This document shows positions 13,834-39,038 of a stretch of DNA of 64,000 bases, piece after piece. Each line of letters starts with the position of its first letter. Position 1 is the stretch's first letter. Made by a program: the position numbers and the translations under genes. This stretch comes from Candidatus Hydrothermarchaeum profundi (GTDB lineage Archaea; Hydrothermarchaeota; Hydrothermarchaeia; Hydrothermarchaeales; Hydrothermarchaeaceae), in assembly GCA_002011125.2 (NCBI GenBank), contig MTMF02000009.1, positions 1,128,989 to 1,192,988 on the forward strand, given 5' to 3'. Under the pieces are notes generated by a model. That model had not been told where the DNA came from. It worked only from the letters and a program-made list of their open reading frames with translations, and did not search any database.

Positions 13834-13877
13834 CCATCTCTAGGAAAATACTTAAAGGTATCTTGATAGGTGAATTT

Positions 13878-14385: not shown

Positions 14386-15171
14386 TCAACCTATATATCT
14401 CATCTCTTCATCTGAGGGTGGTCTTCTCTGTATCATGCCCATCTCTTCCATAATCTTCCTTTCCATCCTTTGGGCTTCTGCAACTCTCTTCTCCGCCTCT
14501 TTTGCTTTCTTTACTAATCTCGTCAAGTCCACCTCTATATTCAATAACCGCGTTAGAACTTCAAGGACAATTCTCGCAGCATTTGAATCAAGATAAAACC
14601 CAGAAGTCTCGCCCATCAAGCATGTTCCAGGTATCCCCCGTACTTTTGCTAGTCCTAATAATAACCCAGAAACCCCGACTATCTGTCCTAGACCCTCTCT
14701 TTTTACTATGACGTTAAGCTCCTCAAGTTTTGGTATCAAATCTTTATCAGTAACCGCTCCAAAAACTTTTGGTTTCTCTACGGTTCTCCCTACTCCTAAT
14801 CCGCCAAGAGTGTATACCCTGCTTATGTTTTGGCTTTCTACGACTTCTAATATTTTCTTGCTTAGTAGATATTGCCCTTCTGAAGTAGAGCTTTGAGTAT
14901 TCCCATCTACTATTATCAGGTCTTTTTGATCGCTCTCTTCAGCTTCCCAATAATAGAATTCATTTTTCATAGTTTCTATCAAACCACTTCTCCTAACGAG
15001 CACCTGCGGCGGGAAGAGGTCTGAATGTAATATAGCAAATTTTTTGGCTCTGAGTTCTACTATCAAATGTCTGGCTGCTATCTTCCCTACGTACCCTATA
15101 CCCGGTAGACCCTCTATTAATACAGGCCGATCCAGTTTTGGTTCATTGGTAATCTTAATCTCAAAACTCAT
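14386..15171 (-). CDS. Proteasome assembly chaperone (PAC2 family)
   Basis: LIEGLPGIGYVGKIA, FPPQV, TLGG, IVGVSGLL, CLMGET. Conserved position after nop10. Confidence 0.9.
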   Translation of the reverse strand: MSFEIKITNEPKLDRPVLIEGLPGIGYVGKIAARHLIVELRAKKFAILHSDLFPPQVLVRRSGLIETMKNEFYYWEAEESDQKDLIIVDGNTQSSTSEGQYLLSKKILEVVESQNISRVYTLGGLGVGRTVEKPKVFGAVTDKDLIPKLEELNVIVKREGLGQIVGVSGLLLGLAKVRGIPGTCLMGETSGFYLDSNAARIVLEVLTRLLNIEVDLTRLVKKAKEAEKRVAEAQRMERKIMEEMGMIQRRPPSDEEMRYIG

Positions 15172-19987: not shown

Positions 19988-20980
19988 TTATTGTATAAAA
20001 GATTTTTGGACCTTTAATATCCCCTGCCGGAATTCTACTTTATCGTATATATCGTAGTAGAAGGTCATCTCTCTTTTTTCAATTTGCTTCATTCCTTTTT
20101 TGCCTAGTGTTATTTCTATACATGTTGAATTGAAATTGGGATCATATTGTGGTCTCCATAGAGCTATCTCCCAGAGGTCTTGTGGATAGAAATCTTCTTT
20201 ATATCTTGAGGTAATTGGCTCAAGGATTATCATAGTGCCTCCTTTTTTCACAACTCTACAAGCGTCAGCTAGAACTTCCTGAGGGTTGGAGACATATTCT
20301 AGGAGAGCATCACATACCACAAGATCAAAAGCTTCTTCCTTGAACGGAAAGCCAACCTCAGCATCATAAGCGATGAAACTAGCCGAGCTACTCCGTAGCC
20401 ATTCTTTAGTTCTTTTAAGGATTTCCATAGATATATTAAGGCATGTTAGACTACCCTTTTTGTCGTAGTATCTCAAGTATTCTTTAATTCCGGTAGATGC
20501 ATCTAAGACTAATAGTTCCCTAGTGGTTTTTCCCAATTCTAGGAAATTCTTAATCCTTTCTTCCCTTAGCTCAAAAGGCTCTGAGATATTGCCTTTTCCA
20601 AGAGGCATTTGCTCATATAAGTTGTAAAATTTTTTTCTTGGTATAAACTCTATTAAATATCCTCTATTCTTTGTAAGATTTCTAGCTCTCCCTCGGTTAT
20701 CTAAAAATACTTCATATTTCTCTTTATTTTTTTCAAATACCGCTATTATGGTCCTATCAGATTTCTCTAAATATGATAACGTAAAGGGACTTCCAGAGCC
20801 TAGGTATGGTCTAATCACGACCCAGCAGAAGCCTTCTCTCAACTCATTACTTGTGTGTAACTTGCAGAGGATACCCTCACTAAAGAGCTTTTTTATTTCA
20901 TAACCGTAATTAGTTTTTCTGCATTGTCCAAAAGTATGTATAGCTCTTTTCCTGCCTTTTCTAAGACCTATCCTCTGCAT
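19988..20980 (-). CDS. Class I SAM-dependent methyltransferase with N-terminal extension
   Basis: C-terminal VLDASTG, DAEVGFPFKEEAFDLVVC, LEYV, RVVKKGG. Confidence 0.75.
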   Translation of the reverse strand: MQRIGLRKGRKRAIHTFGQCRKTNYGYEIKKLFSEGILCKLHTSNELREGFCWVVIRPYLGSGSPFTLSYLEKSDRTIIAVFEKNKEKYEVFLDNRGRARNLTKNRGYLIEFIPRKKFYNLYEQMPLGKGNISEPFELREERIKNFLELGKTTRELLVLDASTGIKEYLRYYDKKGSLTCLNISMEILKRTKEWLRSSSASFIAYDAEVGFPFKEEAFDLVVCDALLEYVSNPQEVLADACRVVKKGGTMIILEPITSRYKEDFYPQDLWEIALWRPQYDPNFNSTCIEITLGKKGMKQIEKREMTFYYDIYDKVEFRQGILKVQKSFIQ

Positions 20981-21010: not shown

Positions 21011-21781
21011 TTATAATTTTCTAATTTTAAAAATTCCTGCACATGTTTTGCAGAGAACTTCACTGTTCCTTGTTATAGTTCTGGAACTCTCCACGTATTC
21101 TCCGCAGTCATCGCAGTTAATAGGGTTTGTTATATACTGTTGATCTAGAGGATATTGCAATTTTTTTGGGTCGACCTTTACGCTGGTGACAATGAATAGT
21201 TCGTCGTCATCCATTTTGTGCCACTTTCTTATTAACTTGGCTTCCTCTTCATCTAATTTTGCTCTTGCATTACGTGCTTCTTCTAGAGTTCTGTCTTTCA
21301 GTTTTAAATAAAATTCATTAAGTTTTTTTCCATACTCGATATGTTCTTTATCTACTTCTGGTCTGAGGGATACTCTAACAGCTTTACCTGTTCTACGATT
21401 ACAGAAAATAGAGGAGAACTTTCCATGATCTAGAAATACCAGTCTACCGCTCCCAAAGCTACATGTTGTTGCACTTGCAATGCCATCAGCAGCGCATGTA
21501 AGAATTTCCACTGCGGCACAAAGATCTTTCTTTCTCTCTAAATCTAGATAAGTAACAGCAAGTAAAGCCATTCTCGCCCCAAGATAAGAAGCCGTACAAA
21601 CATGGCCATGGATCTTTGGAACAATTTTGAGAGTTTCTTTTAGTGAAGGGAACTCTACTCTACCTTTTCTTTTTTTCTCTAAAAAAGGCTCAATATCAAA
21701 TTCTGGAATAGCCATAATTGGAATTTCAAATGAAGTTAGTGATAAAATTATCTGAGTGAAAATTTTATAAAAAGGAGCCAT
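21011..21781 (-). CDS. FmdE family protein with C4 zinc finger
   Basis: IHGHVCTASYLGARM, EILTCAADGI..TTCSFG, CDDCGE...CKTC. True start is probably the internal Met (MAIPEF). Confidence 0.85.
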   Translation of the reverse strand: MAPFYKIFTQIILSLTSFEIPIMAIPEFDIEPFLEKKRKGRVEFPSLKETLKIVPKIHGHVCTASYLGARMALLAVTYLDLERKKDLCAAVEILTCAADGIASATTCSFGSGRLVFLDHGKFSSIFCNRRTGKAVRVSLRPEVDKEHIEYGKKLNEFYLKLKDRTLEEARNARAKLDEEEAKLIRKWHKMDDDELFIVTSVKVDPKKLQYPLDQQYITNPINCDDCGEYVESSRTITRNSEVLCKTCAGIFKIRKL

Positions 21782-21802: not shown

Positions 21803-23137
21803 TCATGTAGCATGTAATGCAATGCTTCTGAAAGATTTCCTCTCCAGGCCCTCACTAATCTTAGTGACCATAGGCTTCTCTTCTAATACCTCTATATCAG
21901 GTAGTGTAGTGTTCATTATTCTTGTAATAGAATCGAAGAGCATTCTCCTCAAGTCGCTATTAGAAAAGTTCTGGGTTTCTATAACTGGATTGAGATGATG
22001 ATACTCACGCCATTGGCGAGTAAGAATCTTTATTCCGATATTCTCGGCTTTCCTGTAGAGATAACTTCCTGGGTAGGGAGTCTGAACTGCGAAAGTAACT
22101 TCTCCTCCTAGTTTTTTGATTTTTAAGGCTAATTTTAAAGTAGCTTTAAATTCCTTTTCAGTCTCAGTAGGATGTCCTATCATGAATCCACATACTGGTG
22201 TGATGCCTTCTTGGACAAAGTTTTTTACAATTCTTAGAACTTCTCTTATTCGAATACCTTTATTTATCAAGTCCACAAGTCTTTGAGAGCCGCTCTCTAT
22301 CCCAAACCGCCCTACTTTACAGCCTGCCTTGGCCATTGCCGTGATGACTTCACTGTCGACATGATCCAATCGTAGTTCAGTGAGCCATTCCATATCCAGT
22401 TTTTTAACAGAGTTGCAGATTTCTAATACTCTTCTTTTATCAAATGCGAAATTAGGGTCTATAATGAAAAAAGAATCAAACCCTAGACTTTGGATGTATA
22501 TTAACTCGTCAACGACTTTTTCAGCTTTTCTAAGCCTAAGACGGCCGGCAATACTTCTAGCACAACAATATCTACAGTAATACGCACATCCCCTGCTGGT
22601 AGCAACTGCGCCGGGGTATGTGTATTTCCACAAATCCAATAGATGACGTGCTGGTAGAGGTAAAGAATCAAGATCTTTAACTCTGTGGCTTCCGTTTTTT
22701 CGAATTTTGTTATTTTCTTTATACACCAGACCCTTTATTGTTGGTGTGGTCCCTTTTTCAAGAGCTTTAAGTAGCTCACCTATTACTAGTTCACCTTCAC
22801 CTACCACTACAAAGTCGAATCCGTCATCTAAAACCTCATCCGGCAAAGCAGTCGCGTGAGGCCCCCCTATTATAACTTTCTTTTTTTGCTTTTTAGCTAA
22901 ATAAAGTATCTTGAGAGCTTCGTGATAGTTATTGGTGTAGCAAGAGACTCCTATTAGTTTTGCTTTTTTTATTTTTCTTTCAAGTTTTTCATTTGTGACG
23001 TTTAAGTCGATTATACCGGTTTTAAAGCCTCCTTGTTCAGCTAAAGCGGCAATATAAGCGACTCCAAGTGGAGGAACAGTTATATCTGCTTCTGAAATAC
23101 TTCTAGACTGCCTAACTTCTACTAATAATAAATCCAT
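21803..23137 (-). CDS. Cobalamin-dependent radical SAM protein (class B methyltransferase-like)
   Basis: PPLGVAYIAA, IGGPHAT, VVGEGE, TSRGCAYYCRYC, FGIESGSQ, FMIGHPTET, TPYPGS. Confidence 0.92.
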   Translation of the reverse strand: MDLLLVEVRQSRSISEADITVPPLGVAYIAALAEQGGFKTGIIDLNVTNEKLERKIKKAKLIGVSCYTNNYHEALKILYLAKKQKKKVIIGGPHATALPDEVLDDGFDFVVVGEGELVIGELLKALEKGTTPTIKGLVYKENNKIRKNGSHRVKDLDSLPLPARHLLDLWKYTYPGAVATSRGCAYYCRYCCARSIAGRLRLRKAEKVVDELIYIQSLGFDSFFIIDPNFAFDKRRVLEICNSVKKLDMEWLTELRLDHVDSEVITAMAKAGCKVGRFGIESGSQRLVDLINKGIRIREVLRIVKNFVQEGITPVCGFMIGHPTETEKEFKATLKLALKIKKLGGEVTFAVQTPYPGSYLYRKAENIGIKILTRQWREYHHLNPVIETQNFSNSDLRRMLFDSITRIMNTTLPDIEVLEEKPMVTKISEGLERKSFRSIALHAT

Positions 23138-23138
23138 C

Positions 23139-23399
23139 TCAAATCTCCACTAGTCCTAAAGTTTTTAGTTTCTCAATAAAATCCGCAATTTCTTTTTCGG
23201 TAGCCGCCCTAAATTTTCTTTTATATAACTCAACTATTCCTGTTTCATCAACTTCCCCTATCAATTTCCATATAAAAGTAGCTTTTTTATTGAGTATGTA
23301 AAGACCCTTATTAGTTGCAATATATGTCTTTTCTCTTTCTTCTTTCCATAATACCTTGGCTTTAATAGGGACTGCATTATTTAATTTTATAGAAGACAT
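23139..23399 (-). CDS. PqqD-family protein (RiPP recognition element-like)
   Basis: 86 aa; LYILNKKATFIWKLI and DFIEKLKTLGLV fit the PqqD pattern. Ends 1 nt before the B12 radical SAM start. Confidence 0.75.
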   Translation of the reverse strand: MSSIKLNNAVPIKAKVLWKEEREKTYIATNKGLYILNKKATFIWKLIGEVDETGIVELYKRKFRAATEKEIADFIEKLKTLGLVEI

Positions 23400-25317: not shown

Positions 25318-26370
25318 ATGGATATTGCTAATTTAAAAATGGAGTTGCAGGCGAAAGGGGTTAAAATTGACTATTCTTTAGAAGAGAAAATAGTTAAAAA
25401 ATTTCCAACAGCGACGAGCGACTATATGTCTTTTCTTATAGGAGATGTACCCGTAGCCATGTTGAATGGATACTACACTGATTCGTCACCTTTCGAAATA
25501 AAAATGAGGGGAAATAAATTCAGCATTTTTAAAAATGGAGATTTTTTGACGGATGTAGAGTTTCTTCAGCGGCCACGATTTTTTGATATATCTACGTCGG
25601 ATGGAGTTAGTATGGAAAAACTTGGCAAACTTGTTGCTCCTGGCTTCTTGATTGTCTACATGACAACTGGATGTATCTATTGGGGGGAGGCTCAATGTAA
25701 ATTTTGTGTAACAGGGTATATAGATACTTTGAAAATCAAAAAAGCTAGTTGGATAGCGGAATTAGCAGAAAAAGGGGCGAAGGAAATAAAGTCTCATATT
25801 GCCTTAACATCAGGGGCATTACCCAAGGATAGGGGAAGCAAATTACTCGCCGAGACTGTTAATTCTATAAAAGAAAGGGTAAATATACCTGTTTCGGTAA
25901 ATTTAGAGCCGCCACGGAATATGGGATGGTTAGACAAACTCTCGAATGCTGACTCCATATACATAAATTTGGAAGTATATGACGAAAAAGCTAGAGCACT
26001 ATTTTTACCCGGAAAAAGCGAATTTAAGCTTGAGTATTATGATAGAATATTTAAACGTTGTTTAGAAGTATTTGAGGAGAATCAGGTTGGTTCGGTATTG
26101 CTCGCTGGGTTAGAAGGCGAGAATACGTACCTAGAGGGTGTTGAGCATTTAGCGAGTTTAGGAGTCATGCCGGTAGTTATCCCTTTTTATCCCACATCTT
26201 TATCAAAGTTAAATTCCTTAAAACCACCTAGTGCAACTAAAATGAAGGAGATTTATCTTAACTCTATTGACATTATAAAGAGTTATGGATTAGATCCTTT
26301 TAAAACGAAAGCAGGATTTATGAGGGGTGGAGCATTGACTGCTATAAAGGAAGTGATGCGTGGTGTATAA
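25318..26370 (+). CDS. Radical SAM protein, MSMEG_0568-like with Cx7Cx2C motif
   Basis: ELQAKGV, PRFFDISTSDGVSM, GCIYWGEAQCKFC, LTSG, VNLEPP, PGKS, NQVGSVLLAGL, VIPFYP. Confidence 0.75.
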   Translation: MDIANLKMELQAKGVKIDYSLEEKIVKKFPTATSDYMSFLIGDVPVAMLNGYYTDSSPFEIKMRGNKFSIFKNGDFLTDVEFLQRPRFFDISTSDGVSMEKLGKLVAPGFLIVYMTTGCIYWGEAQCKFCVTGYIDTLKIKKASWIAELAEKGAKEIKSHIALTSGALPKDRGSKLLAETVNSIKERVNIPVSVNLEPPRNMGWLDKLSNADSIYINLEVYDEKARALFLPGKSEFKLEYYDRIFKRCLEVFEENQVGSVLLAGLEGENTYLEGVEHLASLGVMPVVIPFYPTSLSKLNSLKPPSATKMKEIYLNSIDIIKSYGLDPFKTKAGFMRGGALTAIKEVMRGV

Positions 26371-26830
26371 GCTCGATGAGATTAATAAAGAGTTACTGAG
26401 ACTTCTAGGGAGGAATTCTAGGGCACAGTTTAGCGAGTTAAAGGAAGAGTTAGCTAAGAAAGGTTATGAACTTACAAGAGAGGCTGTAGAGTACAGGGTT
26501 AAAAAAATGATGAAAGAGGGGATAATAAAGGACTTTGCTATGTTTACTGATCCGGAGAAAATAGGCTATCAGCTCTGTTGTCATATAGAGATTCACGTAA
26601 AAGACCCTAGGAAAAGAGATGAAGTAGGTGAGATGTTGGCTGAACTACCCAATACCTCTTTAGTGCATGCAGGAACCACTATCTTTGATATAGCATGCAA
26701 GATATTTTTTACAGACCCTAAGGACATGTTTCAGTTTCTGGATATCTTAGAGAATGATAATAGAGTCAAGGATTTCAATGTCGATATAATAAGGAAAACA
26801 TACAAGGCAGGTCCAATAACTCCGTTATAG
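26360..26830 (+). CDS. Lrp/AsnC family transcriptional regulator
   Basis: KLDEINKELLRLL..NSR, AVEYRVKKM..EGIIK, DPEKIG. Confidence 0.88.
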   Translation: MVYKLDEINKELLRLLGRNSRAQFSELKEELAKKGYELTREAVEYRVKKMMKEGIIKDFAMFTDPEKIGYQLCCHIEIHVKDPRKRDEVGEMLAELPNTSLVHAGTTIFDIACKIFFTDPKDMFQFLDILENDNRVKDFNVDIIRKTYKAGPITPL

Positions 26831-26848: not shown

Positions 26849-27736
26849 TTAGAATAAATAGCAATGATCGCATTCAGCCTCGTAAGTTTCGTTATATTTT
26901 TTCATTATCTCTGGCGAGAGGTATGGAGGTATTCTCCTAAGAGCTTCTTCAAAGTGCCGGGCCTCTAAACTGTCAAATTCCTCACCCTTTTCACGGATAG
27001 CTATTATTTTAGCTTCCCTCACTACTCCTTCGATATCTGCTCCCACGTAGAATTCAGTTTTCTCTGCCAGATCTTCTAGTGAGACATCCTTTGATAAGGG
27101 GGTTCCTTTTAGATGAATCCTAAATATTTCTATACGTCCTTCATAGTCGGGAGCAGGAACATATATTTTCTTTTCTAATCTCCCTTTCCTTAATAACTGA
27201 GGATCAACCACGTCAGGACGATATGTACCCCCAATGGTTATTACGTCCTTACGACTGCTCATCCTATCAAGTTGTTCGTATAAGATCTTCGTAGTTTCTG
27301 TCGGAGCTAATCTTAGTGGAGCATCCCTAGTATGACTAATGGACCAAGGCAACTGCTGCTTCCTATTTGGTGCCAATGCATCTATTTCGTTAATAAATAC
27401 CACAGTTGGTGCTAACTCCAAAGCGGTGTCATACATCCTTTCTATTTCCTCGGGTTCGCTAATTATCTCTATGGCTTTTACTGTGATGTAACTGGCGTCA
27501 GCAGACTTTGCAGCTGCCTCAGACAATATAGTTTTTCCTCCGCCTGGAGGCCCCCATAGGAAAATACCGCTTGGTGGTTTTAATTCTACTTTGGCAAAAA
27601 TATCTGGCAATTTGAGAGGTAGAGATACCATCTCTCTTAAACGTTCTTTTGCATCGGTTAATCCACCAATCTCCTCCCAGCTCCATTTAGGTTCTTTTAT
27701 TCTGAAGTAGTCTCCCTGTCCGTTAACCTTTTTCAT
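26849..27736 (-). CDS. Single-domain Cdc48-like AAA+ ATPase, paralog 1
   Basis: WEEIGGL, GPPGGGKT, FINEID, RPDVVDPQLLRKGRLEKKIYVPAPD, YVGADIE. Confidence 0.9.
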   Translation of the reverse strand: MKKVNGQGDYFRIKEPKWSWEEIGGLTDAKERLREMVSLPLKLPDIFAKVELKPPSGIFLWGPPGGGKTILSEAAAKSADASYITVKAIEIISEPEEIERMYDTALELAPTVVFINEIDALAPNRKQQLPWSISHTRDAPLRLAPTETTKILYEQLDRMSSRKDVITIGGTYRPDVVDPQLLRKGRLEKKIYVPAPDYEGRIEIFRIHLKGTPLSKDVSLEDLAEKTEFYVGADIEGVVREAKIIAIREKGEEFDSLEARHFEEALRRIPPYLSPEIMKKYNETYEAECDHCYLF

Positions 27737-27786
27737 TATAGTATGTTGGATTGCTCACAAAAATATAAAATTAATGGAAGTATCAT

Positions 27787-28215
27787 ATGATATCCATGGA
27801 TTGCGAGTTTTGTGGAAATAAAATCATCCAGTATGGACTTTTTCCAAGGAGTTATAGACTTTATATTTATTTCTGCAAGCGTTGTCTAAGAGCTTTTTTG
27901 GCTCATCACTTTGATCTCAACCTAGAGATTTATCGAATTCAGGATCTGGATGTCAAAAAGAATGGCGAACTATTTTTCTTTTCAGGCCTCAAAGTTGAGC
28001 CAAGGGTTTTTGATTTTAAGGTAGATAGGAGTATAGATGCAGTAATCGTCGCATATAAAAATGATGTTCTAGGTGAACTTGCTAAGACGGATGGCTACAT
28101 ATATGCTCCTTATTCTAGGAAAGCGTTAAACACATTATGTAGATACCTAAAAGAAAAATGCGATATTGGTATAGTAACAAAAAAAGTTGCAGAGTTGTGG
28201 GAGCGAGCTGAATGA
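27787..28215 (+). CDS. Hypothetical protein with N-terminal CxxC-x20-CxxC zinc ribbon
   Basis: CEFCG...FCKRC; overlaps the next ORF by ATGA. Confidence 0.65.
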   Translation: MISMDCEFCGNKIIQYGLFPRSYRLYIYFCKRCLRAFLAHHFDLNLEIYRIQDLDVKKNGELFFFSGLKVEPRVFDFKVDRSIDAVIVAYKNDVLGELAKTDGYIYAPYSRKALNTLCRYLKEKCDIGIVTKKVAELWERAE

Positions 28216-28484
28216 TAGAAGAAATCGAAAAATATGTAGCTAGGATATTTGAGAACTTAAGTCCTTCCCAAAAAGCAACTTTAAAAGCTCTCATGTTTTC
28301 TGGATTTAAAGGGGAACGAGACCATATATTGCTCGAGCTTCTAAAAGAAATGGGAGAGGATAAAATATCTCATAGTGAACTCACTGAGTCTTTTACTTGT
28401 TCATTCGAGGGGGTACTTGTTAATTATTCGAGGATAAAGCCGGAATATTATAGAGCTGTTAGAAAGTTGCTCATGAAAAGTTAG
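28212..28484 (+). CDS. Hypothetical protein
   Basis: 90-aa ORF translationally coupled to the upstream gene; no recognised motif. Confidence 0.55.
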   Translation: MIEEIEKYVARIFENLSPSQKATLKALMFSGFKGERDHILLELLKEMGEDKISHSELTESFTCSFEGVLVNYSRIKPEYYRAVRKLLMKS

Positions 28485-29055
28485 AATAGCAAGGTATGCA
28501 AAGTAGTTTTCCATTTTTAACCTTAACATAATCTTTAAGAACAACCTCGCCGCACCTTTGGCATATCTCATGTTTTAGTGATGGTTCTTCAGCTGGTTTA
28601 AAAAGCGGAGCTTCGGAGAAAGAAAATAGCTTTTCATCGGGGAGCTTATTAAGTTCTTCTACAATCTCTGCGCCGGATTTAAAATGTTCTCTTGCTTCTT
28701 CTTCCCTATTCGAAGGCGGAAGCTTCTTAACTTCTTGTCCTTTTAATCCAAATTCCAAGACTTTTTCTAGGATGTCTCGTTTTACACTTATCCTAACAGA
28801 CCTACTATTAGCTAGATCATAGAAAGATGCAGCGAATTTTCCATAATCTAAGCAATAAAGATTATTTTTACCATATGTAGTTCCACAGACGTATTGTAAG
28901 CCATCTGAAAGACAGTTTTTGTATTCTACCACTGCTATAAGCTTTACACCGTTCTCTCTGGGTCTTCCAAGCACTTCAAGCGCCTTTTTACCCATTCTTA
29001 TGCCGAGAGCATACATCGGACACATGTGTCCGTGAAACCATCGAGGATCCTCCAT
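28471..29055 (-). CDS. FmdE family protein with C4 zinc finger
   Basis: FHGHMCPMYALGIRMG, EYKNCLSDGLQ..CGTTYGK, CQRCGE...CIPC. Confidence 0.88.
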   Translation of the reverse strand: MEDPRWFHGHMCPMYALGIRMGKKALEVLGRPRENGVKLIAVVEYKNCLSDGLQYVCGTTYGKNNLYCLDYGKFAASFYDLANSRSVRISVKRDILEKVLEFGLKGQEVKKLPPSNREEEAREHFKSGAEIVEELNKLPDEKLFSFSEAPLFKPAEEPSLKHEICQRCGEVVLKDYVKVKNGKLLCIPCYSNFS

Positions 29056-29092
29056 GATATCTTTTTTAATACCTTATTATAAAGAATTTGTG

Positions 29093-29818
29093 ATGAAGAA
29101 AAAAATACAGGAATACTACTCCCGGAGGGCTGAGACCTATAGTGATTTAGATGCCCCAGCGACAATAGTCTCCGCAGTTAGATTTAGAGGGGTATTGGAT
29201 CATTTAAAAATAATATCTCCAAAAGAGAATGAAAGGATACTCGACATAGGGTGTGGTACTGGAAGATTTCTACAACCATTTTCTAAGGCAAAGGTTTGTG
29301 GTGTTGATCTCACTCTTAATATGCTTAATAAAGCAAAAGGACATGCTCCTCTAGTAAGGGCGGACGCGGAACATCTCCCTTTTAAAGATGCATCTTTTGA
29401 CATCGCTCATTCAGCAGGGTTATTAGGCATCTATCGTTCGTCAAAAGTTCTAGAGGAGGCGGCGAGAGTCGTTAAGGAAAATGGTAAAATCTATATCAGT
29501 TTTCCAGCTGCAACCAGCGTGAGTGGGATAGTTTCATTAATATTTCAAAAATTATTCCGGTATAATCCTTCGCTATTTGACTATTGGTATACCAAAAAAG
29601 ACATACGGAGAATGTTTCCTCCAGAAGTCGAGCTAGTTAAAATTTATAGGTTGGGATGGGAGCCTCCTTTCCAAAGGTGGTTTAAAGAATTGGAATCTAG
29701 GAAGCTTGTTAAACTCTTCTTATTTCTTGAGAATATTTTGAAAAACAAGCCTTTTTTTAAATATTTTTGTGCGAGATTTTTAGCGGTAGGCGTAGTTGGA
29801 GCTAGTAGAAGCTCTTAA
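29093..29818 (+). CDS. Class I SAM-dependent methyltransferase
   Basis: ILDIGCGTG, GVDLT, ADAEHLPFKDASFD, RVVKENG. ATG 29093 preferred over 29054, which overlaps the divergent gene. Confidence 0.9.
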   Translation: MKKKIQEYYSRRAETYSDLDAPATIVSAVRFRGVLDHLKIISPKENERILDIGCGTGRFLQPFSKAKVCGVDLTLNMLNKAKGHAPLVRADAEHLPFKDASFDIAHSAGLLGIYRSSKVLEEAARVVKENGKIYISFPAATSVSGIVSLIFQKLFRYNPSLFDYWYTKKDIRRMFPPEVELVKIYRLGWEPPFQRWFKELESRKLVKLFLFLENILKNKPFFKYFCARFLAVGVVGASRSS

Positions 29819-29925
29819 ATAAGGCGGCATCTGTGTTATTATCTTATAGGATAGAATTTTAAAAAAATTAATATAATTTGACCGATTTTTCTCTATTTGA
29901 TTAGATTATTGGAGGTGAAAATCTA

Positions 29926-30342
29926 ATGTCTTTGCCGGAGGATTTCCATGAGATATTTAGCAATTATTGTGCTTCTGGCAGACCTATAGTATGGGTCTCT
30001 ACGATTGATGACGGAACACCGCATCTTGTTCCCGTATGTTTTGTTAAGGTTTTAGGGGAAGATAAGATTCTAATCGCTAATGTCTTTATTAAAAAGACGG
30101 TTAGGAACATAGAGAAAGGCTCTAAAATAGCAGTCGGGGCAGTTGTAAAAGAAGACGGTTTTAAGGGGTACATGATTAAAGGTAGAGCAGAAAACCTAAA
30201 AGAAGGAAAGCTTTTTGAGGACTTCGCTAAAGAGGTTTCAGATAAAAGTGGCGGTAGAAGGAAGCCAAAATCTGCAGTACTAGTAACGATAGAAGAAGTT
30301 TATTCTTTAAAACCATATGAAGGGCGTAAGAGGATTATTTAA
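29926..30342 (+). CDS. Pyridoxamine 5'-phosphate oxidase-like FMN-binding protein
   Basis: VSTIDDGTPH, KKTVRNI, GYMIKGRAE, EEVYSL. Strong SD GGAGGTGA at 29911. Confidence 0.85.
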   Translation: MSLPEDFHEIFSNYCASGRPIVWVSTIDDGTPHLVPVCFVKVLGEDKILIANVFIKKTVRNIEKGSKIAVGAVVKEDGFKGYMIKGRAENLKEGKLFEDFAKEVSDKSGGRRKPKSAVLVTIEEVYSLKPYEGRKRII

Positions 30343-30344
30343 TA

Positions 30345-30740
30345 TCACCATAACTCTTTTATCTTACCTAGGATGTATTTTTCAATCCCGAACTCTGCGT
30401 CTTTATTCGGGATCATAACCAGAGCCTTCCATGGAATTCCTAAGTCCCAGACAGCTCTCGCCCTTCTATGACCGTCGATCAGTATATCTTTATCAGGCTT
30501 TCTGAGAATGATTATAGGACAGGCATAGCCATGTTCTATTGCCTTCTTTATTTCCACAACTTTTTTAGCAAAGGTAACGCGGTTCTCTTCTCCCGGAAAG
30601 GTGTAGTGGACATCTCCTAGCTTACTTTTATCTATTATCTCCTCTTTTTCCTCAAATTTCAATTCTTCATGGACAGCTTCATAAGACCTTATTACATCCT
30701 TAAACAGGATCTTCTCCTCATATTCCTGAATCAATGTCAT
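30345..30740 (-). CDS. Stand-alone ParB/sulfiredoxin-like domain protein
   Basis: AIEHGYACPIII..ILIDGHRRARA. ATG 30740 preferred because the called start overlaps the upstream AAA gene. Confidence 0.72.
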   Translation of the reverse strand: MTLIQEYEEKILFKDVIRSYEAVHEELKFEEKEEIIDKSKLGDVHYTFPGEENRVTFAKKVVEIKKAIEHGYACPIIILRKPDKDILIDGHRRARAVWDLGIPWKALVMIPNKDAEFGIEKYILGKIKELW

Positions 30741-30774
30741 GTTAATCCAATATATTTCTTCATTTTTAAAGCTT

Positions 30775-31653
30775 TCAAAAATTGTATTTATGGATGCAAT
30801 CTTCTGAGATGATTTTGTTGTAGTCCTCTGCCATCGCATGTGATAACCAGGGTTTTATTTTTTCTTTTGCTTCTAGCATATCCCTCATGGTGACATAGGA
30901 TGAGTTGTTGCCTGACCTTTCTAGCGTGTTTAGAATCGCTTTCCTACATAGAGCTTCTAAGTCCCATCCCACATAATATTCTGTGATTTCAGCGATTTTT
31001 TTTAAGTTCACATCATTAGCTAGTTTAGCATTTCTCAGATAATATTTCAAAATTTTTAATCTATCGCTTTTATTTGGCATTGGAACGTATATTTTTCTAC
31101 CTAACATGTTGGTTCTGGTAAAAGCCTGATCTAGAACGTCTATTCGATATGAAGATGCCGCTACTATTATGCTATCGACAGAGGCGACTCTCTCTACTTC
31201 TTTATAGACAGTTTGATGAACTTGGGGAGTTCCAAATTTATCAGGCTTGCCTGTTGTCGTGCCATCCTTCCACCTATAATCTGCACCTTCTCTAGGACAA
31301 AGCCAATCTATATCCATTAAGTGGACTACGCAGGGGGCATTCTTTAATGCTAACTGGAATCCCTTTTTTATGACTTCTGGCTTGTCTGTGCATTCTCTCC
31401 CCCTTATTAAAATATAATTAGTTCCAGCCTCCTTTGCTGCAGCCTCTATCAAATGTCCTTTTCCAGTACCTAGCGGTCCCCATACTATCACTCCGGTTGG
31501 CGGAGTTAATGAAGCTTTTTTTAATTCTTCACGATATTTTAGAGGAACTACGATCATCTCTCTAAATTTTTCTTTAACATTTTCGTAACCAGCTATTTGT
31601 TCAAAACTAAACCTCGGTTCTCTCATATCTATGTATATCTGGTCGTAGTCCAT
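30775..31653 (-). CDS. Single-domain Cdc48-like AAA+ ATPase, paralog 2 (degenerate)
   Basis: FEQIAGY, GPLGTGKG, HLMDID, RIDVLDQAFTR..MLGRKIYVPMP, YVGWDLE. ATG 31653. Confidence 0.88.
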   Translation of the reverse strand: MDYDQIYIDMREPRFSFEQIAGYENVKEKFREMIVVPLKYREELKKASLTPPTGVIVWGPLGTGKGHLIEAAAKEAGTNYILIRGRECTDKPEVIKKGFQLALKNAPCVVHLMDIDWLCPREGADYRWKDGTTTGKPDKFGTPQVHQTVYKEVERVASVDSIIVAASSYRIDVLDQAFTRTNMLGRKIYVPMPNKSDRLKILKYYLRNAKLANDVNLKKIAEITEYYVGWDLEALCRKAILNTLERSGNNSSYVTMRDMLEAKEKIKPWLSHAMAEDYNKIISEDCIHKYNF

Positions 31654-31666
31654 AGGAGTCCCCCTT

Positions 31667-32539
31667 TTAGTACATGTATCTGTGCTTACACTCTTCTTTG
31701 TAAATCTCTTCATATCTGCTTATAAGTTCTGGTGAAAGTGAGGGAGGTATCCTTTTCATCGCTTCCTTAAAGTGTCGTAGTGATACTTTTTCGAACGTCT
31801 TGCCATTCTCCTTTATTGCGATTAAGGTGGCTTCTCGTGGGAGAGATATTAAATCCGAACTAGAATAGTTTTCAGTAATTTCAGATATTACCTCAGGCGA
31901 TGCATCTTCTGCGAGAGGAATTTTTTTAAGGGACAGCCTTAGAATTTCTAATCTATCATAGTAGTCTGGCGCGGGAACGTATATTTTTCTATCTAATCTT
32001 CCATTACGGAGTAAGGCAGGGTCGATTATATCTGGGCGGTTGCTTCCTCCAATCGTAATAACTTTATCATTTTTTGCAGATTTATCGATTTCACGTAAGA
32101 ATCTCCTAGTAGTGTTAGGAGGAGCTATTTTACGTGGGGGTTCTAAAAGACCCGATTGAGCTTCTCGCCTTGGGGCTAATACTTCGATTTCATTAATGAA
32201 AATAACACATGGGGCAATCTTAGTTGCATCTTTGTACAGGTGTGTTATCTGATGTTCGTTTTCAATTATCCTAGAAGCTTCTACGGAGATATACATAGCA
32301 TTGGCATCTGAAGCAGCCGCTTCGGCTAAAGTACGCATGCTTGTTTTTGGGGGACCCCACATTAGTATTCCATTTCTTGGTCTTAGGTCAGCTTTTTTAA
32401 AAGCCTCTGGATATTTTAAGGGTAAGGATACCATTTCTTCTAATCTTTTTTTTACCTCTGTAAAGCCTCCAATATCTTCAAATTTGATTACCGCTTCCCT
32501 TATTTTATAGCACTGACCGGGATCGAGTATCTCGCACAT
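31667..32539 (-). CDS. Single-domain Cdc48-like AAA+ ATPase, paralog 3 (Walker A degenerate)
   Basis: FEDIGGF, GPPKTSMRT, FINEIE, NRPDIIDPALLRNGRLDRKIYVPAPD. Confidence 0.88.
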   Translation of the reverse strand: MCEILDPGQCYKIREAVIKFEDIGGFTEVKKRLEEMVSLPLKYPEAFKKADLRPRNGILMWGPPKTSMRTLAEAAASDANAMYISVEASRIIENEHQITHLYKDATKIAPCVIFINEIEVLAPRREAQSGLLEPPRKIAPPNTTRRFLREIDKSAKNDKVITIGGSNRPDIIDPALLRNGRLDRKIYVPAPDYYDRLEILRLSLKKIPLAEDASPEVISEITENYSSSDLISLPREATLIAIKENGKTFEKVSLRHFKEAMKRIPPSLSPELISRYEEIYKEECKHRYMY

Positions 32540-32541
32540 AG

Positions 32542-33603
32542 TTAGGCCTTCCCAAATTTTCTTGAAGCATTTACCATTGCATAAAGGTTTTTAAAAGGAG
32601 TCTGCGAGTGGAGACCACAACTACTAGAGACTATATAACTATACTTCCCAGCTTTATTGATGCAGTTTTTGACGTTCTCTTCAACATCTCGTTCAGACCC
32701 CTTGTGGAGAGTGCCCACAGAGACGTTTCCGAAAAGAGCGACTTTATTTCCAACTTCTTTCATTGCTTTATTAAGATCTACTGACTCATCTACACTCAAG
32801 CAAACTGCCCCAGTCTTTGCGAGGTCTTTGAGTATAGGGGAAGTGTCTCCACATATGTGTATAATAACTTCCCCCCCGTACTTCCTTAGAGCGCTACAAA
32901 CTTTTTTTTCATAAGGATATGCGAACTCCCTATAATGTTTTGGTGAGATAACTTGCGATGCTGCAGAAGGATCTTCGATCATGATTCCGTGAGTACCTAT
33001 ATCTATTTGCTTCTTCCCGATCTCTATAGCAGCCTCAGCCATGAAATTTAAGAGCTTGTGAACTTCATTTTTTCTTATACTCATATCCAGCATGAAGTTT
33101 TCCATACCTCGAATCCATTCAGCGGCATAATGAAATGGTGCAGGCACTTTACTGCAGATATATACCTCCCCCTTAGTTATCTTAAGTAGTTCTTGCAGGG
33201 GCTCCCACCTTTCTTCATTATCTGTGTCGGGCATTTTTAATTCGTCTAGCTGTGAATAGTCACTTATAGCAGGTTCCCTCACAGCAGGTCCTCCATTAAG
33301 AGGTATCTTAAGCTTAGTTCCCCACTCAGTTGGCAATACCGCATATCCATCAATTATTTTTAAGCTCTTACGTTCCTCTTTGGTAATTCCTTGTATTGGC
33401 TGATGATTGAATATCCAGTCGTATCCGTACTTCCTCTGTGCTTTTAACTGTCCTTTTACGTAGAGTTCATTATTAGTAACGTATTCCCAAGGCTTTACTC
33501 CTAAAACTTTAGAGGCATGAGGGACATTGACCATTGGGGCTACCGGTAGATAATCTAGTGAATCTCCTTCTAACGCAGCTCTGAATCTTTCAACAGATTT
33601 CAT
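32542..33603 (-). CDS. MtaA/CmuA (UroD-fold) methylcobamide:thiol methyltransferase
   Basis: ERFRAAL, PVAP, IRGMENFMLDM, EDPSA..VISP, zinc ligands IHICG and SSSCG, GNV. Confidence 0.88.
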   Translation of the reverse strand: MKSVERFRAALEGDSLDYLPVAPMVNVPHASKVLGVKPWEYVTNNELYVKGQLKAQRKYGYDWIFNHQPIQGITKEERKSLKIIDGYAVLPTEWGTKLKIPLNGGPAVREPAISDYSQLDELKMPDTDNEERWEPLQELLKITKGEVYICSKVPAPFHYAAEWIRGMENFMLDMSIRKNEVHKLLNFMAEAAIEIGKKQIDIGTHGIMIEDPSAASQVISPKHYREFAYPYEKKVCSALRKYGGEVIIHICGDTSPILKDLAKTGAVCLSVDESVDLNKAMKEVGNKVALFGNVSVGTLHKGSERDVEENVKNCINKAGKYSYIVSSSCGLHSQTPFKNLYAMVNASRKFGKA

Positions 33604-34226
33604 TTCTTCTCCCTCATGATCCTCTCGCAGAGAAGTACTGCTTTTCTAGCGTCACTGCCATAACCTTGGACACCAAGCTCTTTTGCATACTCTTCAGTAG
33701 CGGCAGCTCCCCCAATAATAAAAGCATATTTTTCCCTTAAACCATGTTTTTCGAATTCTTCTATTACCCTTTTCATCCCCTCAATAGTGGTGGTCATCAT
33801 TGCGGATAATCCTACAATATCCGCCCTGAACTCTTTTGCCTTCTCTACGAAGTCTATGGCAGGTATATCTCTTCCAATATTGTACACCTTAAAGCCTGCT
33901 CCTTCTAAGAACATTGCTACGAGGTTCTTTCCTATATCATGAACATCGCCTTCGACACTTCCTATTACTATTCTTCCTGTGGCCTCTGATTTTTCATAGT
34001 CTAATAGAGGCTTAAGGATATCAAGGCCTCTCTGCATAGCATAAGCAGATAATAATGTTTCAGGAACATAGTACTCTTTTTTCTCAAATTTTTCTCCTAC
34101 TATCTCCATGCCTGAGATCATTTCTCTGAGGATTTCCTCAGGTTTAAGGCCATTATCAAGAGAGTTTCTAATGAGAGTTTCTATGTTATCTATATCCCCA
34201 TTAATGACGGCTTCTTTAATGGACAT
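33600..34226 (-). CDS. Methyltransferase corrinoid protein (MtaC/MtbC-like)
   Basis: Cap domain GMEIVGEKFE..YYVPE; EGDVHDIGKNLV, GLSAMMTTT, IIGGA. Confidence 0.95.
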   Translation of the reverse strand: MSIKEAVINGDIDNIETLIRNSLDNGLKPEEILREMISGMEIVGEKFEKKEYYVPETLLSAYAMQRGLDILKPLLDYEKSEATGRIVIGSVEGDVHDIGKNLVAMFLEGAGFKVYNIGRDIPAIDFVEKAKEFRADIVGLSAMMTTTIEGMKRVIEEFEKHGLREKYAFIIGGAAATEEYAKELGVQGYGSDARKAVLLCERIMREKK

Positions 34227-34341: not shown

Positions 34342-35358
34342 TTAGCGTCTTGTATTGTAGGAGACTTTCACCATCTCTGTTATATTTTCTTCTCTAGCAC
34401 TTCGTGGGACTACGCATCCAGAACTTAGGACTACCCTTTCCTGTAGTTCCACGACTTTCTCAGAGATTTTTCTAATTTCTGATGGAGTGCCTCTAAAGAG
34501 TAGATTGGAAGGTACATTTCCCCATGCAGGTATTTTTTCCCAGACTAATTTTATGTCAGTCATTTCATCGAAACTCAAGCAACTCGCTCCGGTTCTACTC
34601 ACATCGTCTAGTATTTTACTGATATCTCCGCATATATGGAGTATTACTGGTACATCCTTTGTTATTTCTTTTATAAGTCTGCGTTCATATTTGAAGACAA
34701 ATTTTCGGTAATCTTCAGGGGAAATTAGTGATGAAGAAGCTGATGAATCTGGTATAAAAATCGCATGTGCTCCTACTTCAATCTGAGCTTTGGCGATTTC
34801 TAGGCAGCGATCAAGTGAAAAATCGAGTAGTTTTAAGATAAAATCTCTATCTTTTTTCATCTCTACCAAAAATTTTTCAAGAGGATATAAGAAGGTTGAA
34901 GCAAAAGTAAATGGAGCTCTAGTTGTACCGCAAACAAAATCTTCTTTTTCAAGCATATATCTTAGCGGCGCCGTCCTTTCTTTTGAGAATTGATCTGGGA
35001 TATTAATTTTGTCAAGCTCTTCCTTGCTTTTTAACGCAGGCTCTAAAGTTTGAGGCGACCCATGGGAAGATAGCAGTATCTTAGTTCCTAACTCTAACTG
35101 TAGAATAACTCTATCGTCTTGGTAAATTACATTTTTCCTCTCCCACTTGGTGATTCCTTGAAACGGTTGATGAGCCCAGACCCAATCATACCCATGATGA
35201 CGTTTACATGCAATCTGGGCTTCTGCATATTTTTTATTATCCAACACATACTCTTGGGGACTAATACCATATATTTTTGAAGCATAACCAGAGGTTATTA
35301 GAGGCGCAACCGGGACTCTCTCAACTTTCTTGCCTGTGAGGGTTTCTAGTATATTCAT
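34342..35358 (-). CDS. Second MtaA/CmuA (UroD-fold) methyltransferase
   Basis: RVPVAP, APFT, PDSSAS..LISP, LHICG, WGNV, LSSGC. Confidence 0.86.
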   Translation of the reverse strand: MNILETLTGKKVERVPVAPLITSGYASKIYGISPQEYVLDNKKYAEAQIACKRHHGYDWVWAHQPFQGITKWERKNVIYQDDRVILQLELGTKILLSSHGSPQTLEPALKSKEELDKINIPDQFSKERTAPLRYMLEKEDFVCGTTRAPFTFASTFLYPLEKFLVEMKKDRDFILKLLDFSLDRCLEIAKAQIEVGAHAIFIPDSSASSSLISPEDYRKFVFKYERRLIKEITKDVPVILHICGDISKILDDVSRTGASCLSFDEMTDIKLVWEKIPAWGNVPSNLLFRGTPSEIRKISEKVVELQERVVLSSGCVVPRSAREENITEMVKVSYNTRR

Positions 35359-37085: not shown

Positions 37086-39038
37086 TTACTTAGAGAGATT
37101 AGATTCTCTCGTAACTCCCGGTAATGTAAAAGTTCCTTCCTTATATGCTAGCCTAGCAAATAAGTTGGGGTCAGGTACTTTCTCCAGATGCCACAGGAAA
37201 ATGTTATCATACAATAGATCGCTTGCAAGATCATGAACTACTTGAGCCTTGGAAGGTAACATCCCCATTCCTTGTAGCTTCATCATCATAGGGATCCTAT
37301 TCAGCGACCTTCCTCTATACTGGCTTCTTCTAGCTTCTAGGTATTCATCTGCAGAAAGACCCCTCGCCGCCCTCGCATATGCTTCCAACCATAACTTCTT
37401 CTCGGAAAATCCTCCGCTAAGTTTTTTGGCTTCCTCGACAGATGTAAGCTTTTCTAGATTATCCAGCAAAATAAAGCCTCGTATGTAGGTCCCCGTTAAC
37501 TCTTTAAGAGTCATAAAGTCCGGTTTTTGGATTAGTGATTTTTCAAGCTCTTGTCCTTTAACTACATTTTCTGTTAGATTAGTTAAGAAAATATCAAGAG
37601 GGGGGGTTGTAGCCTTTTCAGCCTCTTCTTTAATAATATCGACATCCACATCCAAGTAAAGTGGTCTATCTTTTATCATGTCTGAAAGAAATCTTGTTTT
37701 CTGAAGTTGGAATGCTTTCCTCTGACTACCTACCAATCTAAAATTCACTCCATCCACTAGGAATATGTGTCCCGTAGGGGTCCCATCTTCAATAATATCG
37801 AAGATATAGTTTGGTTCTCCATCATAATAATAAGGACCTCTTACGATTATTCCTTCGCCTTCTAATAGGAGGGGATATCCCTTCAAGACATCTCTAGCGG
37901 TCTCCAAGTCGATACCACCTGCTTTTATCGTTATGTCTACCGTATCTACATTTTTTATCTTATGGGATATCAGTTCCATTGGAGAGGGTACACGGAATTC
38001 ATCCGACGAGGCATAAGATTGAGAAGTAAATCCCAGAGTTATTGCTCCGATCACAAGTAGGGCTATAATAAACATTGGCCGTCTCCTCGTTAATATCAGC
38101 ACCGATATAGCCAATAGGATAATGATAGTAGGGCCACATACGGCTTTTCCACTTTCAGCTACTTTTTGAACACCAAGGCGTTTTTTTGCATTTTCAATTT
38201 CAGGAAGATAGTCATATGATAGAATATCTTTCCTTAAAGATATCTCACTATCTAGTATTTTCGCATTCTCTCCTACAAGCTCTACTTCCCTTAGAATACT
38301 CTCTTTAGTAACTACTATATCCCACTTCTCCCTAATAGTAGTACCTGGAGGATACTCTTCTAATTCCCCCGTGAACACCTTTAAATCTAGTCCCAGTTGT
38401 AAGTAATCCGAGAATACTTTGTCATATGCTTCAATTAGTTTTTGAAATCCTTCATATGAGTACTTACCTGTTGCTGAGGATTCATGGATTTCTATTAAGA
38501 GGTTAGGGGGCGTTCTGCTGTACCTGAAGGTGTAAGAATCTTCAGGATAAAGTATAGAGTTGGTAATTCTACTTACTTCGGCAATATCTTCTGCGAGTTT
38601 CTCATAGTCTGTCAGGAAAGTTTCTAATTGTACTCTCTCCTCGTCTGTTAAGGTTGAAAAACTGGCGAAGTTTCTCACATTTTGTGTTTCATATTTTGCT
38701 GCAAGAGGTATCTTTGTATAATCTCCTATAGCATAGAATAACGGATCCCAGAGAGTCAGAGTTTTAAGGTCTCTTGTTGCGAACACTTTTCGCATGACTT
38801 CTGCATCGGTAACGAACTGTGATTTTAATTCATCATAAACTAACGACCCCTTCTTCTCCCCCATTAGCATATAATCAGCTATGAAATAGGGGTTGTTATC
38901 AACGTAAAACGGTCCCTCTATTAAAATAGCCTCTCCATTAGAGTATTTAGTTGCGGATTCTCTTACTTCGTTTGGTGATGCATATACGGGAGATATCAGT
39001 AAAATAACAGCCAATAATGTACAAAGTACTTTCATCAT
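37086..39038 (-). CDS. Secreted/surface protein with two related domains and an internal CGP-CTERM-like segment
   Basis: N-terminal signal peptide (..SPVYA); central VCGPTIIILLAISVLILTRRR followed by a second hydrophobic segment. Confidence 0.75.
   Translation of the reverse strand: MMKVLCTLLAVILLISPVYASPNEVRESATKYSNGEAILIEGPFYVDNNPYFIADYMLMGEKKGSLVYDELKSQFVTDAEVMRKVFATRDLKTLTLWDPLFYAIGDYTKIPLAAKYETQNVRNFASFSTLTDEERVQLETFLTDYEKLAEDIAEVSRITNSILYPEDSYTFRYSRTPPNLLIEIHESSATGKYSYEGFQKLIEAYDKVFSDYLQLGLDLKVFTGELEEYPPGTTIREKWDIVVTKESILREVELVGENAKILDSEISLRKDILSYDYLPEIENAKKRLGVQKVAESGKAVCGPTIIILLAISVLILTRRRPMFIIALLVIGAITLGFTSQSYASSDEFRVPSPMELISHKIKNVDTVDITIKAGGIDLETARDVLKGYPLLLEGEGIIVRGPYYYDGEPNYIFDIIEDGTPTGHIFLVDGVNFRLVGSQRKAFQLQKTRFLSDMIKDRPLYLDVDVDIIKEEAEKATTPPLDIFLTNLTENVVKGQELEKSLIQKPDFMTLKELTGTYIRGFILLDNLEKLTSVEEAKKLSGGFSEKKLWLEAYARAARGLSADEYLEARRSQYRGRSLNRIPMMMKLQGMGMLPSKAQVVHDLASDLLYDNIFLWHLEKVPDPNLFARLAYKEGTFTLPGVTRESNLSK

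Follow-up and report, generated by a model that had tools for sequence, protein, structure and literature searches.

A cluster of three AAA protein genes in the archaeon Candidatus Hydrothermarchaeum profundi (assembly GCA_002011125.2, contig MTMF02000009.1) raises the question of why paralogs whose ATPase cores have drifted apart should all end in the same short C-terminal tail, C-x-H-x-Y-x-[FY], and what such a tail might do on proteins of this fold. The genes, here designated AAA-A, AAA-B, and AAA-C, lie within a stretch of 64,000 nucleotides (nt) of that contig (positions 1,128,989 to 1,192,988). This whole stretch is referred to below as the window, and all coordinates count from its first letter. 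The genes and their tails are as follows.

26849..27736, reverse strand: AAA-A, 295 amino acids (aa), a single Cdc48-D2-like AAA module with the tail ECDHCYLF
26852..26875, reverse strand: the AAA-A tail ECDHCYLF, the last eight codons ahead of the stop
30775..31653, reverse strand: AAA-B, 292 aa from the ATG at 31653, with the tail DCIHKYNF
30778..30801, reverse strand: the AAA-B tail DCIHKYNF
31667..32539, reverse strand: AAA-C, 290 aa, with the tail ECKHRYMY
31670..31693, reverse strand: the AAA-C tail ECKHRYMY

The longest open reading frame (ORF) for AAA-B spans 30775-31713 and encodes 312 aa; the real start is most likely the ATG at 31653, yielding 292 aa, because the database gene call (292 aa) and all orthologs begin there. 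This ATG lies 13 nt past the AAA-C stop and is preceded by a GGGGG run that resembles a ribosome-binding site. Translation of the final nine codons placed all three genes in an exact C-x-H-x-Y-x-[FY]-stop register, bearing out what the first-pass annotation of the window had described, while AAA-A is only 35% identical to AAA-B and 48% identical to AAA-C. When the 8272 stop-to-stop frames of at least 60 aa in the whole 2.19-Mb genome were scanned for the C-terminal pattern C.H.[YFW].[FYW], three frames were recovered, which are the AAA trio and nothing else, against an expectation from composition of 0.03-0.04. A tail common to paralogs could nevertheless be plain inheritance, so that conservation is the real test, and the tail passes it.

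Database searches with AAA-A and AAA-B returned 184 proteins (120 and 64 matches listed, respectively), of which 120 carry the tail. Of the 120 matches listed for AAA-A, 61 have the tail, the other 59 being proteins of the Cdc48, PAN, and FtsH types that are devoid of it. Of the 64 listed for AAA-B, every one carries it except five, which comprise two apparently truncated or frame-shifted proteins, two of the Cdc48 type, and one ending in HKYNS. About 110 archaeal protein clusters conserve the tail, and six bacterial proteins with 38-41% identity to AAA-B end in DCPHHY[NSH]F. Bacterial loci were gathered in a scan of one genome per species with an alignment of B-type and bacterial sequences, from which the best 80 of 117 relatives were kept; as the first sequence of the alignment was bacterial, all of these 80 are bacterial, and archaea outside the phylum were not covered by the scan. 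Exactly one ORF ending in CPHHY.F was found in 78 of the 80 loci, and the remaining two are cut by the end of the locus. Most carriers belong to the Desulfuromonadales, among them Geothermobacter hydrogeniphilus HR-1 and a metagenome-assembled genome (MAG) of Malonomonas rubra, and the rest to Nitrospirae, Rokubacteria, and others. By contrast, the tail occurs in none of the 59 non-family matches and in none of 148 Cdc48-type representatives (150 matches listed, of which two are family members, in a search where the scores of multi-domain proteins add up).

An alignment of 113 archaeal and bacterial sequences contains 11 invariant columns (G25, G57, W61, G62, E73, A76, P123, D178, D234, C289, and H291), and the tail Cys and His are two of them. 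The hypergeometric probability of finding at least two of the 11 within the last seven of 295 positions is 0.024. Y293 and F295 are conserved in at least 90% of sequences, and the Lys of Walker A, unlike the tail Cys and His, is not invariant. Only counts made by synteny or operon position are independent of the tail itself, and among orthologs so defined the A tail reads EC.HCY[LM]F in 5/5 (as it does in the A-type clusters), the B tail reads DC[IVL]HKYNF in 8/8 (as in nearly all matches to the AAA-B query), and the C tail is identical in all nine genes at the same operon position. The first-pass annotation had named in advance a tail not conserved in orthologs as the outcome that would speak against it; the tail is kept in archaeal and bacterial orthologs alike. 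It is thus a real, non-random, and family-defining motif on a variant of the classic AAA proteins. The closest Cdc48 relatives have the ending P-x-Y-[LIMF]-G and likewise have a Tyr at position -3 (7/59 and 16/148 in the two sets above), so the tail Tyr looks inherited, and the Cys and His are the family's own.

What kind of AAA proteins carry this tail? All three match the AAA domain PF00004 (AAA-A at 85.2, AAA-B at 53.9, and AAA-C at 77.6 bits, cut-off 21.2), and AAA_lid_3 is matched by AAA-A (49.8 bits) and AAA-B (43.1 bits, cut-off 27.2), AAA-C falling under the cut-off at 20.7 bits. None reaches the threshold of the CDC48 family TIGR01243 (238.3, 170, and 209.5 bits for AAA-A, AAA-B, and AAA-C, against 802.65), whose match spans only profile positions 440-730 of 733, i.e. 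the D2 half, or that of PAN (TIGR01242; 198.6, 135.1, and 168.9 bits against 500). The closest solved relatives are VAT (5vc7, E 4e-103) and p97 D2 (Z 28). Neither Pfam nor NCBIfam holds a family-specific model for the trio, an Atlas search returned generic AAA clusters only, and literature searches recovered no description of a tail-bearing AAA family.

Motifs were compared in group consensus sequences built from 48 A-type, 10 C-type, 51 B-type, and 84 bacterial sequences plus seven Cdc48 D2 references. Alignment to VAT D2 leaves a 4-residue gap exactly at pore loop 1 in all four groups, so the aromatic-hydrophobic-Gly signature of threading unfoldases is missing from the family. A family-specific insertion of 12 residues, with conserved Trp, Gly, and Pro, follows Walker B in the pore-loop-2 stretch, and a Trp always stands ahead of the P-loop. 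No group retains the Walker B Asp (N-E in A and C, M-D in B, S-D in bacteria), and the sensor-1 Asn has become Tyr in the A, B, and bacterial groups. Walker A is intact (GPPGGGKT) in 5/5 A genes; the C-position gene lacks GK[ST] in 9/9 cases, with AAA-C itself carrying a degenerate GPPKTSMRT, and the B-position gene carries GK[GA] or GRG in 8/8, with AAA-B reading GTGKG and lacking the Thr/Ser. In the bacterial group the P-loop is dead and reads G-I-T. The combination of GK[ST], D-E, and sensor-1 Asn expected of a competent ATPase is accordingly found neither in the trio nor in the bacterial group. Two database proteins, P0036 and P0058, combine a C-like tail with an intact P-loop, and a fourth variant therefore exists elsewhere. 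The earlier description of diverged cores with a retained tail was right in that the tail outlives the divergence of the cores, but too mild in its wording, as several catalytic motifs have been replaced outright. Judged from these comparisons, the family is an undescribed clade of single-module AAA proteins derived from Cdc48/p97 D2, one that appears to have abandoned the threading of substrates and most of its ATPase chemistry.

Structural models indicate where the tail may lie. The AlphaFold models have a mean predicted local distance difference test (pLDDT) score of 91.6 for AAA-A and 95.5 for AAA-B, and the last two blocks, which hold the tail, score 91 and 85 in AAA-A and 95 and 87 in AAA-B; a short helix is modeled across the H-x-Y-x residues of the tail. 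The insertion is disordered in the AAA-A model (residues 132-139 below 50) and confidently placed in that of AAA-B. By the p97 numbering, the conserved Trp of the insertion would stand about as far past Walker B as D592 does, which would place the insertion and the tail at one pocket. With VIA-align, residues 1-289 of the AAA-B monomer model superpose on p97 residues 462-766 in the ATPgammaS structures 7jy5 (Z 28.7) and 5c18 (Z 28.0), and structures of the ADP state such as 3cf0 align only to residue 763. The position of p97 Arg766 falls between the tail His and Tyr and is occupied by Lys in B, Arg in C, Cys in A, and His in bacteria. As reported for VCP, tail residues 763-775 turn toward the neighboring D2 nucleotide site in the ATPgammaS state, where Arg766 coordinates the gamma-phosphate and Phe768 occupies an allosteric pocket close to K754, Y755, and D592, and the tail is described there as partly autoinhibitory (PMC11181084). 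By analogy, the family's tail may be a hard-wired, trans-acting element at a remodeled inter-subunit pocket.

The gene neighborhoods offer a second line of evidence. Downstream neighbors were counted in the 66 bacterial loci with at least 1.6 kb of sequence past the AAA gene. An FmdE gene with an HGHxC motif follows directly in 50/66, a gene for a permease with an SPLC[AS]CG motif is found in 52/66, and both are present in 49/66. The permease matches ArsP_1, the SaoE and SO_0444 models staying below their cut-offs. Over 53 bacterial sequences, mean column identity is 81% for the AAA protein as against 34% for the product of the adjoining FmdE gene, and the His2Cys2 ligands of FmdE are invariant in the 53 bacterial FmdE neighbors. 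FmdE is reported to bind Zn or Ni through His2Cys2 in a cleft that is open to solvent and measures about 30 x 10 Å, and most FmdE genes to adjoin metal transporter genes (PMC2954224); permeases of the ArsP/SaoE type with a CSC motif have been tied to soft-metal or organometal efflux in a preprint that also describes a protein with a CC-COOH tail (Haft 2022). Farther downstream lie genes for DUF4198/CarboxypepD_reg, NosD-like/PQQ-propeller, OpuAC-like, and DUF362 proteins, also in loci without FmdE. In one sub-clade (L031-L043 and L106, tail REDCPHHYSF), a gene for an OpuAC-like lipoprotein follows the AAA gene in place of FmdE and the permease, with DUF362, NosD-like, and DUF4198 genes still nearby.

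In the archaea, 10 family loci were examined within a phylum set of 38 genomes. The genes that accompany the trio in the window are listed here.

32542..33603, reverse strand: MtaA-like methyltransferase 1 (URO-D family), directly upstream of AAA-C in the same operon, with an HxC motif
33600..34226, reverse strand: corrinoid (B12-binding) protein, found in 8/10 archaeal loci, which are all those that hold the operon
34342..35358, reverse strand: MtaA-like methyltransferase 2 (URO-D family)
28471..29055, reverse strand: FmdE1, an FmdE domain with the metal motif FHGHxC and a C-terminal zinc ribbon
27787..28215, forward strand: 142-aa protein of no known family with an N-terminal CxxC...CxxC ribbon, divergent from AAA-A
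28212..28484, forward strand: 90-aa protein of no known family, co-transcribed with the 142-aa protein and conserved in L114 and L117
29054..29818, forward strand: S-adenosylmethionine (SAM)-dependent methyltransferase (Methyltransf_11), divergent from FmdE1, the pair being conserved in L114 and L116

The C-type ortholog (E <1e-100) is present in 9/38 genomes, with a contig-end fragment in G026, and an ortholog of MtaA-like 1 (68-73% identity) in exactly 11/38, namely the 10 AAA carriers and G016, whose contig ends 290 nt from the MtaA-like 1 gene. The order corrinoid protein, MtaA-like 1, AAA-C, AAA-B is kept in eight loci besides the window, with MtaA-like 2 mostly ahead, and AAA-A lies no more than a few kb from the operon in G000, G003, and G031; in G003 and G007 it runs divergently to an MtaA-like gene. 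Orthologs of FmdE1 (at least 50% identity) occur in 9/38 genomes, eight of which hold the AAA trio, and the 142-aa ribbon protein in 10/38, nine of them with the trio. Three further candidates for a role or a partner were considered and set aside. The trio is neither a RACo/RamA-type activator of corrinoid proteins nor a substitute for one, the genome itself having two matches to PF14574, the ASKHA ATPase domain of such activators, and PF14574 occurring in 24/38 genomes, including every trio genome except G014, which is 62% complete. The ParB-like gene that follows AAA-B is conserved in no other family locus, the other 10 archaeal ones included; its ORF (30345-30839, reverse strand, 164 aa) has weak similarity to the ParB/RepB N terminus (E about 3e-4) and overlaps the 3' end of AAA-B by 65 nt. 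A class-V aminotransferase, taken as a sulfur-transfer lead, stands beside the AAA gene in only 1/80 bacterial and 1/10 archaeal loci.

The reading that we favor, at a rough probability of 0.4, is that the tail is an ordered, probably metal-ligating inter-subunit element of a non-motor accessory ring. By homology to p97, the tail would leave the last helix and lie in the inter-subunit cleft beside the remodeled nucleotide pocket of the neighboring subunit, where the invariant Cys and His would most likely ligate a thiophilic metal of the Zn/Ni type at the subunit interface or, alternatively, trade metal with the His2Cys2 site of an FmdE partner. Such a metal site, one of the options that the first-pass annotation had raised, is plausible from the chemistry of Cys and His and from the neighbors, i.e. 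FmdE, the CxC permease, and the HxC motif of the MtaA-like enzymes. We infer further that the archaeal A, B, and C proteins probably form one mixed ring with one intact (A) and two degenerate (B and C) P-loops, and that this ring may serve as an accessory factor for the assembly, metal delivery, or regulation of the methyltransferase module, dependent on Zn and corrinoid, that the same operon encodes, the single dead copy in bacteria doing likewise for an FmdE and CxC-permease metal-handling operon.

Several observations weigh against this proposal. Only the Cys and His are universal, and two ligands are too few for a metal site within a single chain. The high pLDDT of the tail stems from monomer models and may mirror packing in cis or simply strong conservation in the underlying alignment. 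The consensus groups were sorted by their tails, which makes per-group counts of tail residues circular, and kin genomes are non-independent observations. As to partners, 16/66 bacterial loci have no FmdE gene after the AAA gene, FmdE is all that the archaeal and bacterial contexts have in common, it adjoins the AAA genes in only about four archaeal genomes, and one genome, G011, has FmdE1 and the 142-aa protein with no AAA trio at all.

Among the alternatives, the one that survives best, rather unlikely though it is, holds that the tail is a metal-free structural plug, a hard-wired form of the p97 tail, that glues neighboring subunits together or fills the degenerate nucleotide pocket, such that the ring holds without ATP turnover and the Cys, His, and Tyr act through hydrogen bonds and stacking. 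The ordered modeling of the tail, its superposition on the p97 tail as far as residue 766, and the catalytic residues near the pocket, which have been remodeled together with the tail, speak for a plug, and in VCP Phe768 and Arg766 are reported to work without metal (PMC11181084). Set against this, an invariant Cys and His two residues apart are typical of metal ligation, the additional Cys of A (C-x-H-C) and the additional His of the bacterial proteins (C-P-H-H) are typical of it as well, and the neighbors are metal proteins.

Two further proposals assign the tail a chemical role of its own. It is quite improbable that the ring is a carrier and not a motor, its Cys/His tails holding a soft metal or accepting a methyl group from the corrinoid and MtaA-like enzymes and passing the load to FmdE and then to the CxC exporter, so that a thiol borne on a protein would replace coenzyme M or work as an organometal shuttle. 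Slimmer still is the prospect that the Cys is itself a substrate thiol. The MtaA-like enzymes would then take a methyl group from the corrinoid protein, or else a metal species that is soft or methylated, and load it onto the tail, making the tail a protein-borne stand-in for coenzyme M or an organometal carrier. MtaA methylates a thiol, and MtaA (4AY7) is the best solved relative of the MtaA-like enzymes. The trio moreover shares its operon, and co-occurs exactly, with two MtaA-like genes and the corrinoid protein, and both the link of ArsP/SaoE-type CxC permeases to soft-metal or organometal export and the CC-COOH precedent, as set out in the preprint cited above, fit the scheme. The bacterial family, however, keeps the tail and yet has no corrinoid or URO-D gene in any of 80 loci, and the tail is modeled as packed, not free.

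The suggestion that the tail resembles a hydrophobic-Tyr-X (HbYX) peptide that docks on or opens the 20S proteasome, or another ring partner, now seems very unlikely. The family does descend from Cdc48 D2, its nearest Cdc48 relatives also have Tyr at -3, and the archaeon has two Proteasome-family genes. The first-pass annotation had itself cautioned that the tail is not a canonical HbYX, and correctly so: none of the 120 family proteins fits the pattern [LVIMGAPFYW][FY]x-end (as given in PMC3493965), position -2 being L, N, M, A, E, or S. Docking on the 20S proteasome, for which it had suggested a gate-opening assay, is likewise unsupported: pore loop 1 is deleted, the tail is modeled as ordered, and the genome encodes a PAN-like protein whose C terminus is canonical; in addition, five bacterial carrier genomes, all MAGs in which missing genes may have gone unassembled, have a single Proteasome-family match each, just like the HslV-only controls E. 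coli and B. subtilis. Weakest of all, and hardly credible, is the idea from the same source that the tails are substrates, akin to ribosomally synthesized and post-translationally modified peptides, of the PqqD (23139-23399, reverse strand) and B12-binding radical SAM (21803-23137, reverse strand) pair encoded 3.5 kb from AAA-A, because PqqD occurs in 0/80 bacterial and 0/10 archaeal loci and radical SAM in 1/80 and 0/10, and the pair is missing from the otherwise syntenic L114.

Further features of the window and the phylum were recorded along the way. Three FmdE paralogs lie within the window (13863-14384 on the forward strand, 21011-21781 and 28471-29055 on the reverse strand), and the genome has four PF02663 matches. 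Two of the three adjoin Methyltransf_11 genes (19988-20980 and 29054-29818); G031 (L114) retains both pairs, and G027 (L116) retains the one with FmdE1. Back to back with the FmdE gene at 13863-14384 is a gene of the PAC2 family (proteasome assembly chaperone 2 family; 14386-15171, reverse strand). The PqqD and radical SAM genes (21803-23399), which stand between an FmdE gene and the gene for an ABC permease, look like an insertion relative to L114. A radical SAM gene and the AsnC-type regulator gene that follows it (25318-26830, forward strand) form a pair conserved with G031 (63% and 71% identity); this radical SAM protein is MSMEG_0568-like, at 182.9 bits against a cut-off of 303.7, and passes the cut-off of the variant radical SAM model NF045502. 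ORFs at 37086-39038 (reverse strand, 650 aa) and 44332-46134 (forward strand, 600 aa) have no Pfam match at E 1e-8, and the former has a homolog with 50% identity near the operon of G018. Elsewhere in the phylum, URO-D matches with one or two in-frame TAG codons (G007:C14:85757-86557, G008:C84:2770-3570, and G011:C18:2851-3648) could be methyltransferase genes that either encode pyrrolysine or are broken; Hydrothermarchaeota are mentioned in a preprint on archaeal codes that read TAG as pyrrolysine. A RACo-type activator match with one in-frame TGA (G018:C32:8622-9362) lies about 1 kb from MtaA-like 2 of the G018 operon.

Classic AAA proteins are understood as ATP-driven threading machines, and a widely distributed, highly conserved clade devoid of the pore loop and most catalytic residues that nonetheless bears an invariant Cys-His tail points to a non-motor use of the fold. 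The family ties together FmdE proteins, whose structures are known but whose function is not, permeases of the ArsP/SaoE CxC type, and an orphan corrinoid methyltransferase operon of Hydrothermarchaeota, and its occurrence in cultured Desulfuromonadales (Geothermobacter hydrogeniphilus) makes it testable at the bench. What is new is the recognition that nothing in the family is more conserved than the tail, the form with three paralogs and one intact P-loop in the archaea, the exact linkage of the trio to the corrinoid methyltransferase operon, and the positional match to the p97 tail. Should the carrier proposal prove true, the AAA fold would have acquired a new use, and non-methanogenic archaea would have a new branch of corrinoid-dependent chemistry that acts on methyl groups or metals.

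How does the family compare with known systems? The best sequence and fold match is to the D2 domain of p97/VCP and VAT/Cdc48, with which the family also shares the Tyr of the last helix; its tail is modeled along the path of the p97 tail as far as residue 766. In contrast to p97 and VAT, it consists of a single module with neither N domain nor D1, it lacks pore loop 1, other residues stand in place of the Walker B Asp and the sensor-1 Asn, a 12-residue insertion follows Walker B, and the chain ends seven residues past the last helix with an invariant Cys and His. With the HbYX tails of PAN/Rpt and Cdc48 it has in common an aromatic-containing C terminus on a classic-clade AAA protein, but its Tyr is at -3 and not -2, and it has no coiled-coil/OB domain and no pore loop. 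Within the family, the bacterial branch resembles the archaeal trio in the register of the tail (DCPHHYxF), the deletion of pore loop 1, the insertion, and the FmdE neighbor, and differs in having one copy with a dead P-loop, whereas the archaeon has three paralogs, one with its P-loop intact, and a corrinoid methyltransferase operon. FmdE (PF02663) itself recalls the tail in its Cys/His motifs and is a conserved neighbor of the AAA gene in both domains of life, although its fold is unrelated and its His2Cys2 site is complete, compared with the two or three ligands of the tail. Finally, heteromeric AAA+ assemblies such as the Mg-chelatase BchI/BchD and the clamp loaders mix active and degenerate subunits, and the archaeal trio, which belongs to a different AAA+ clade, would resemble them in its combination of one intact and two degenerate P-loops.

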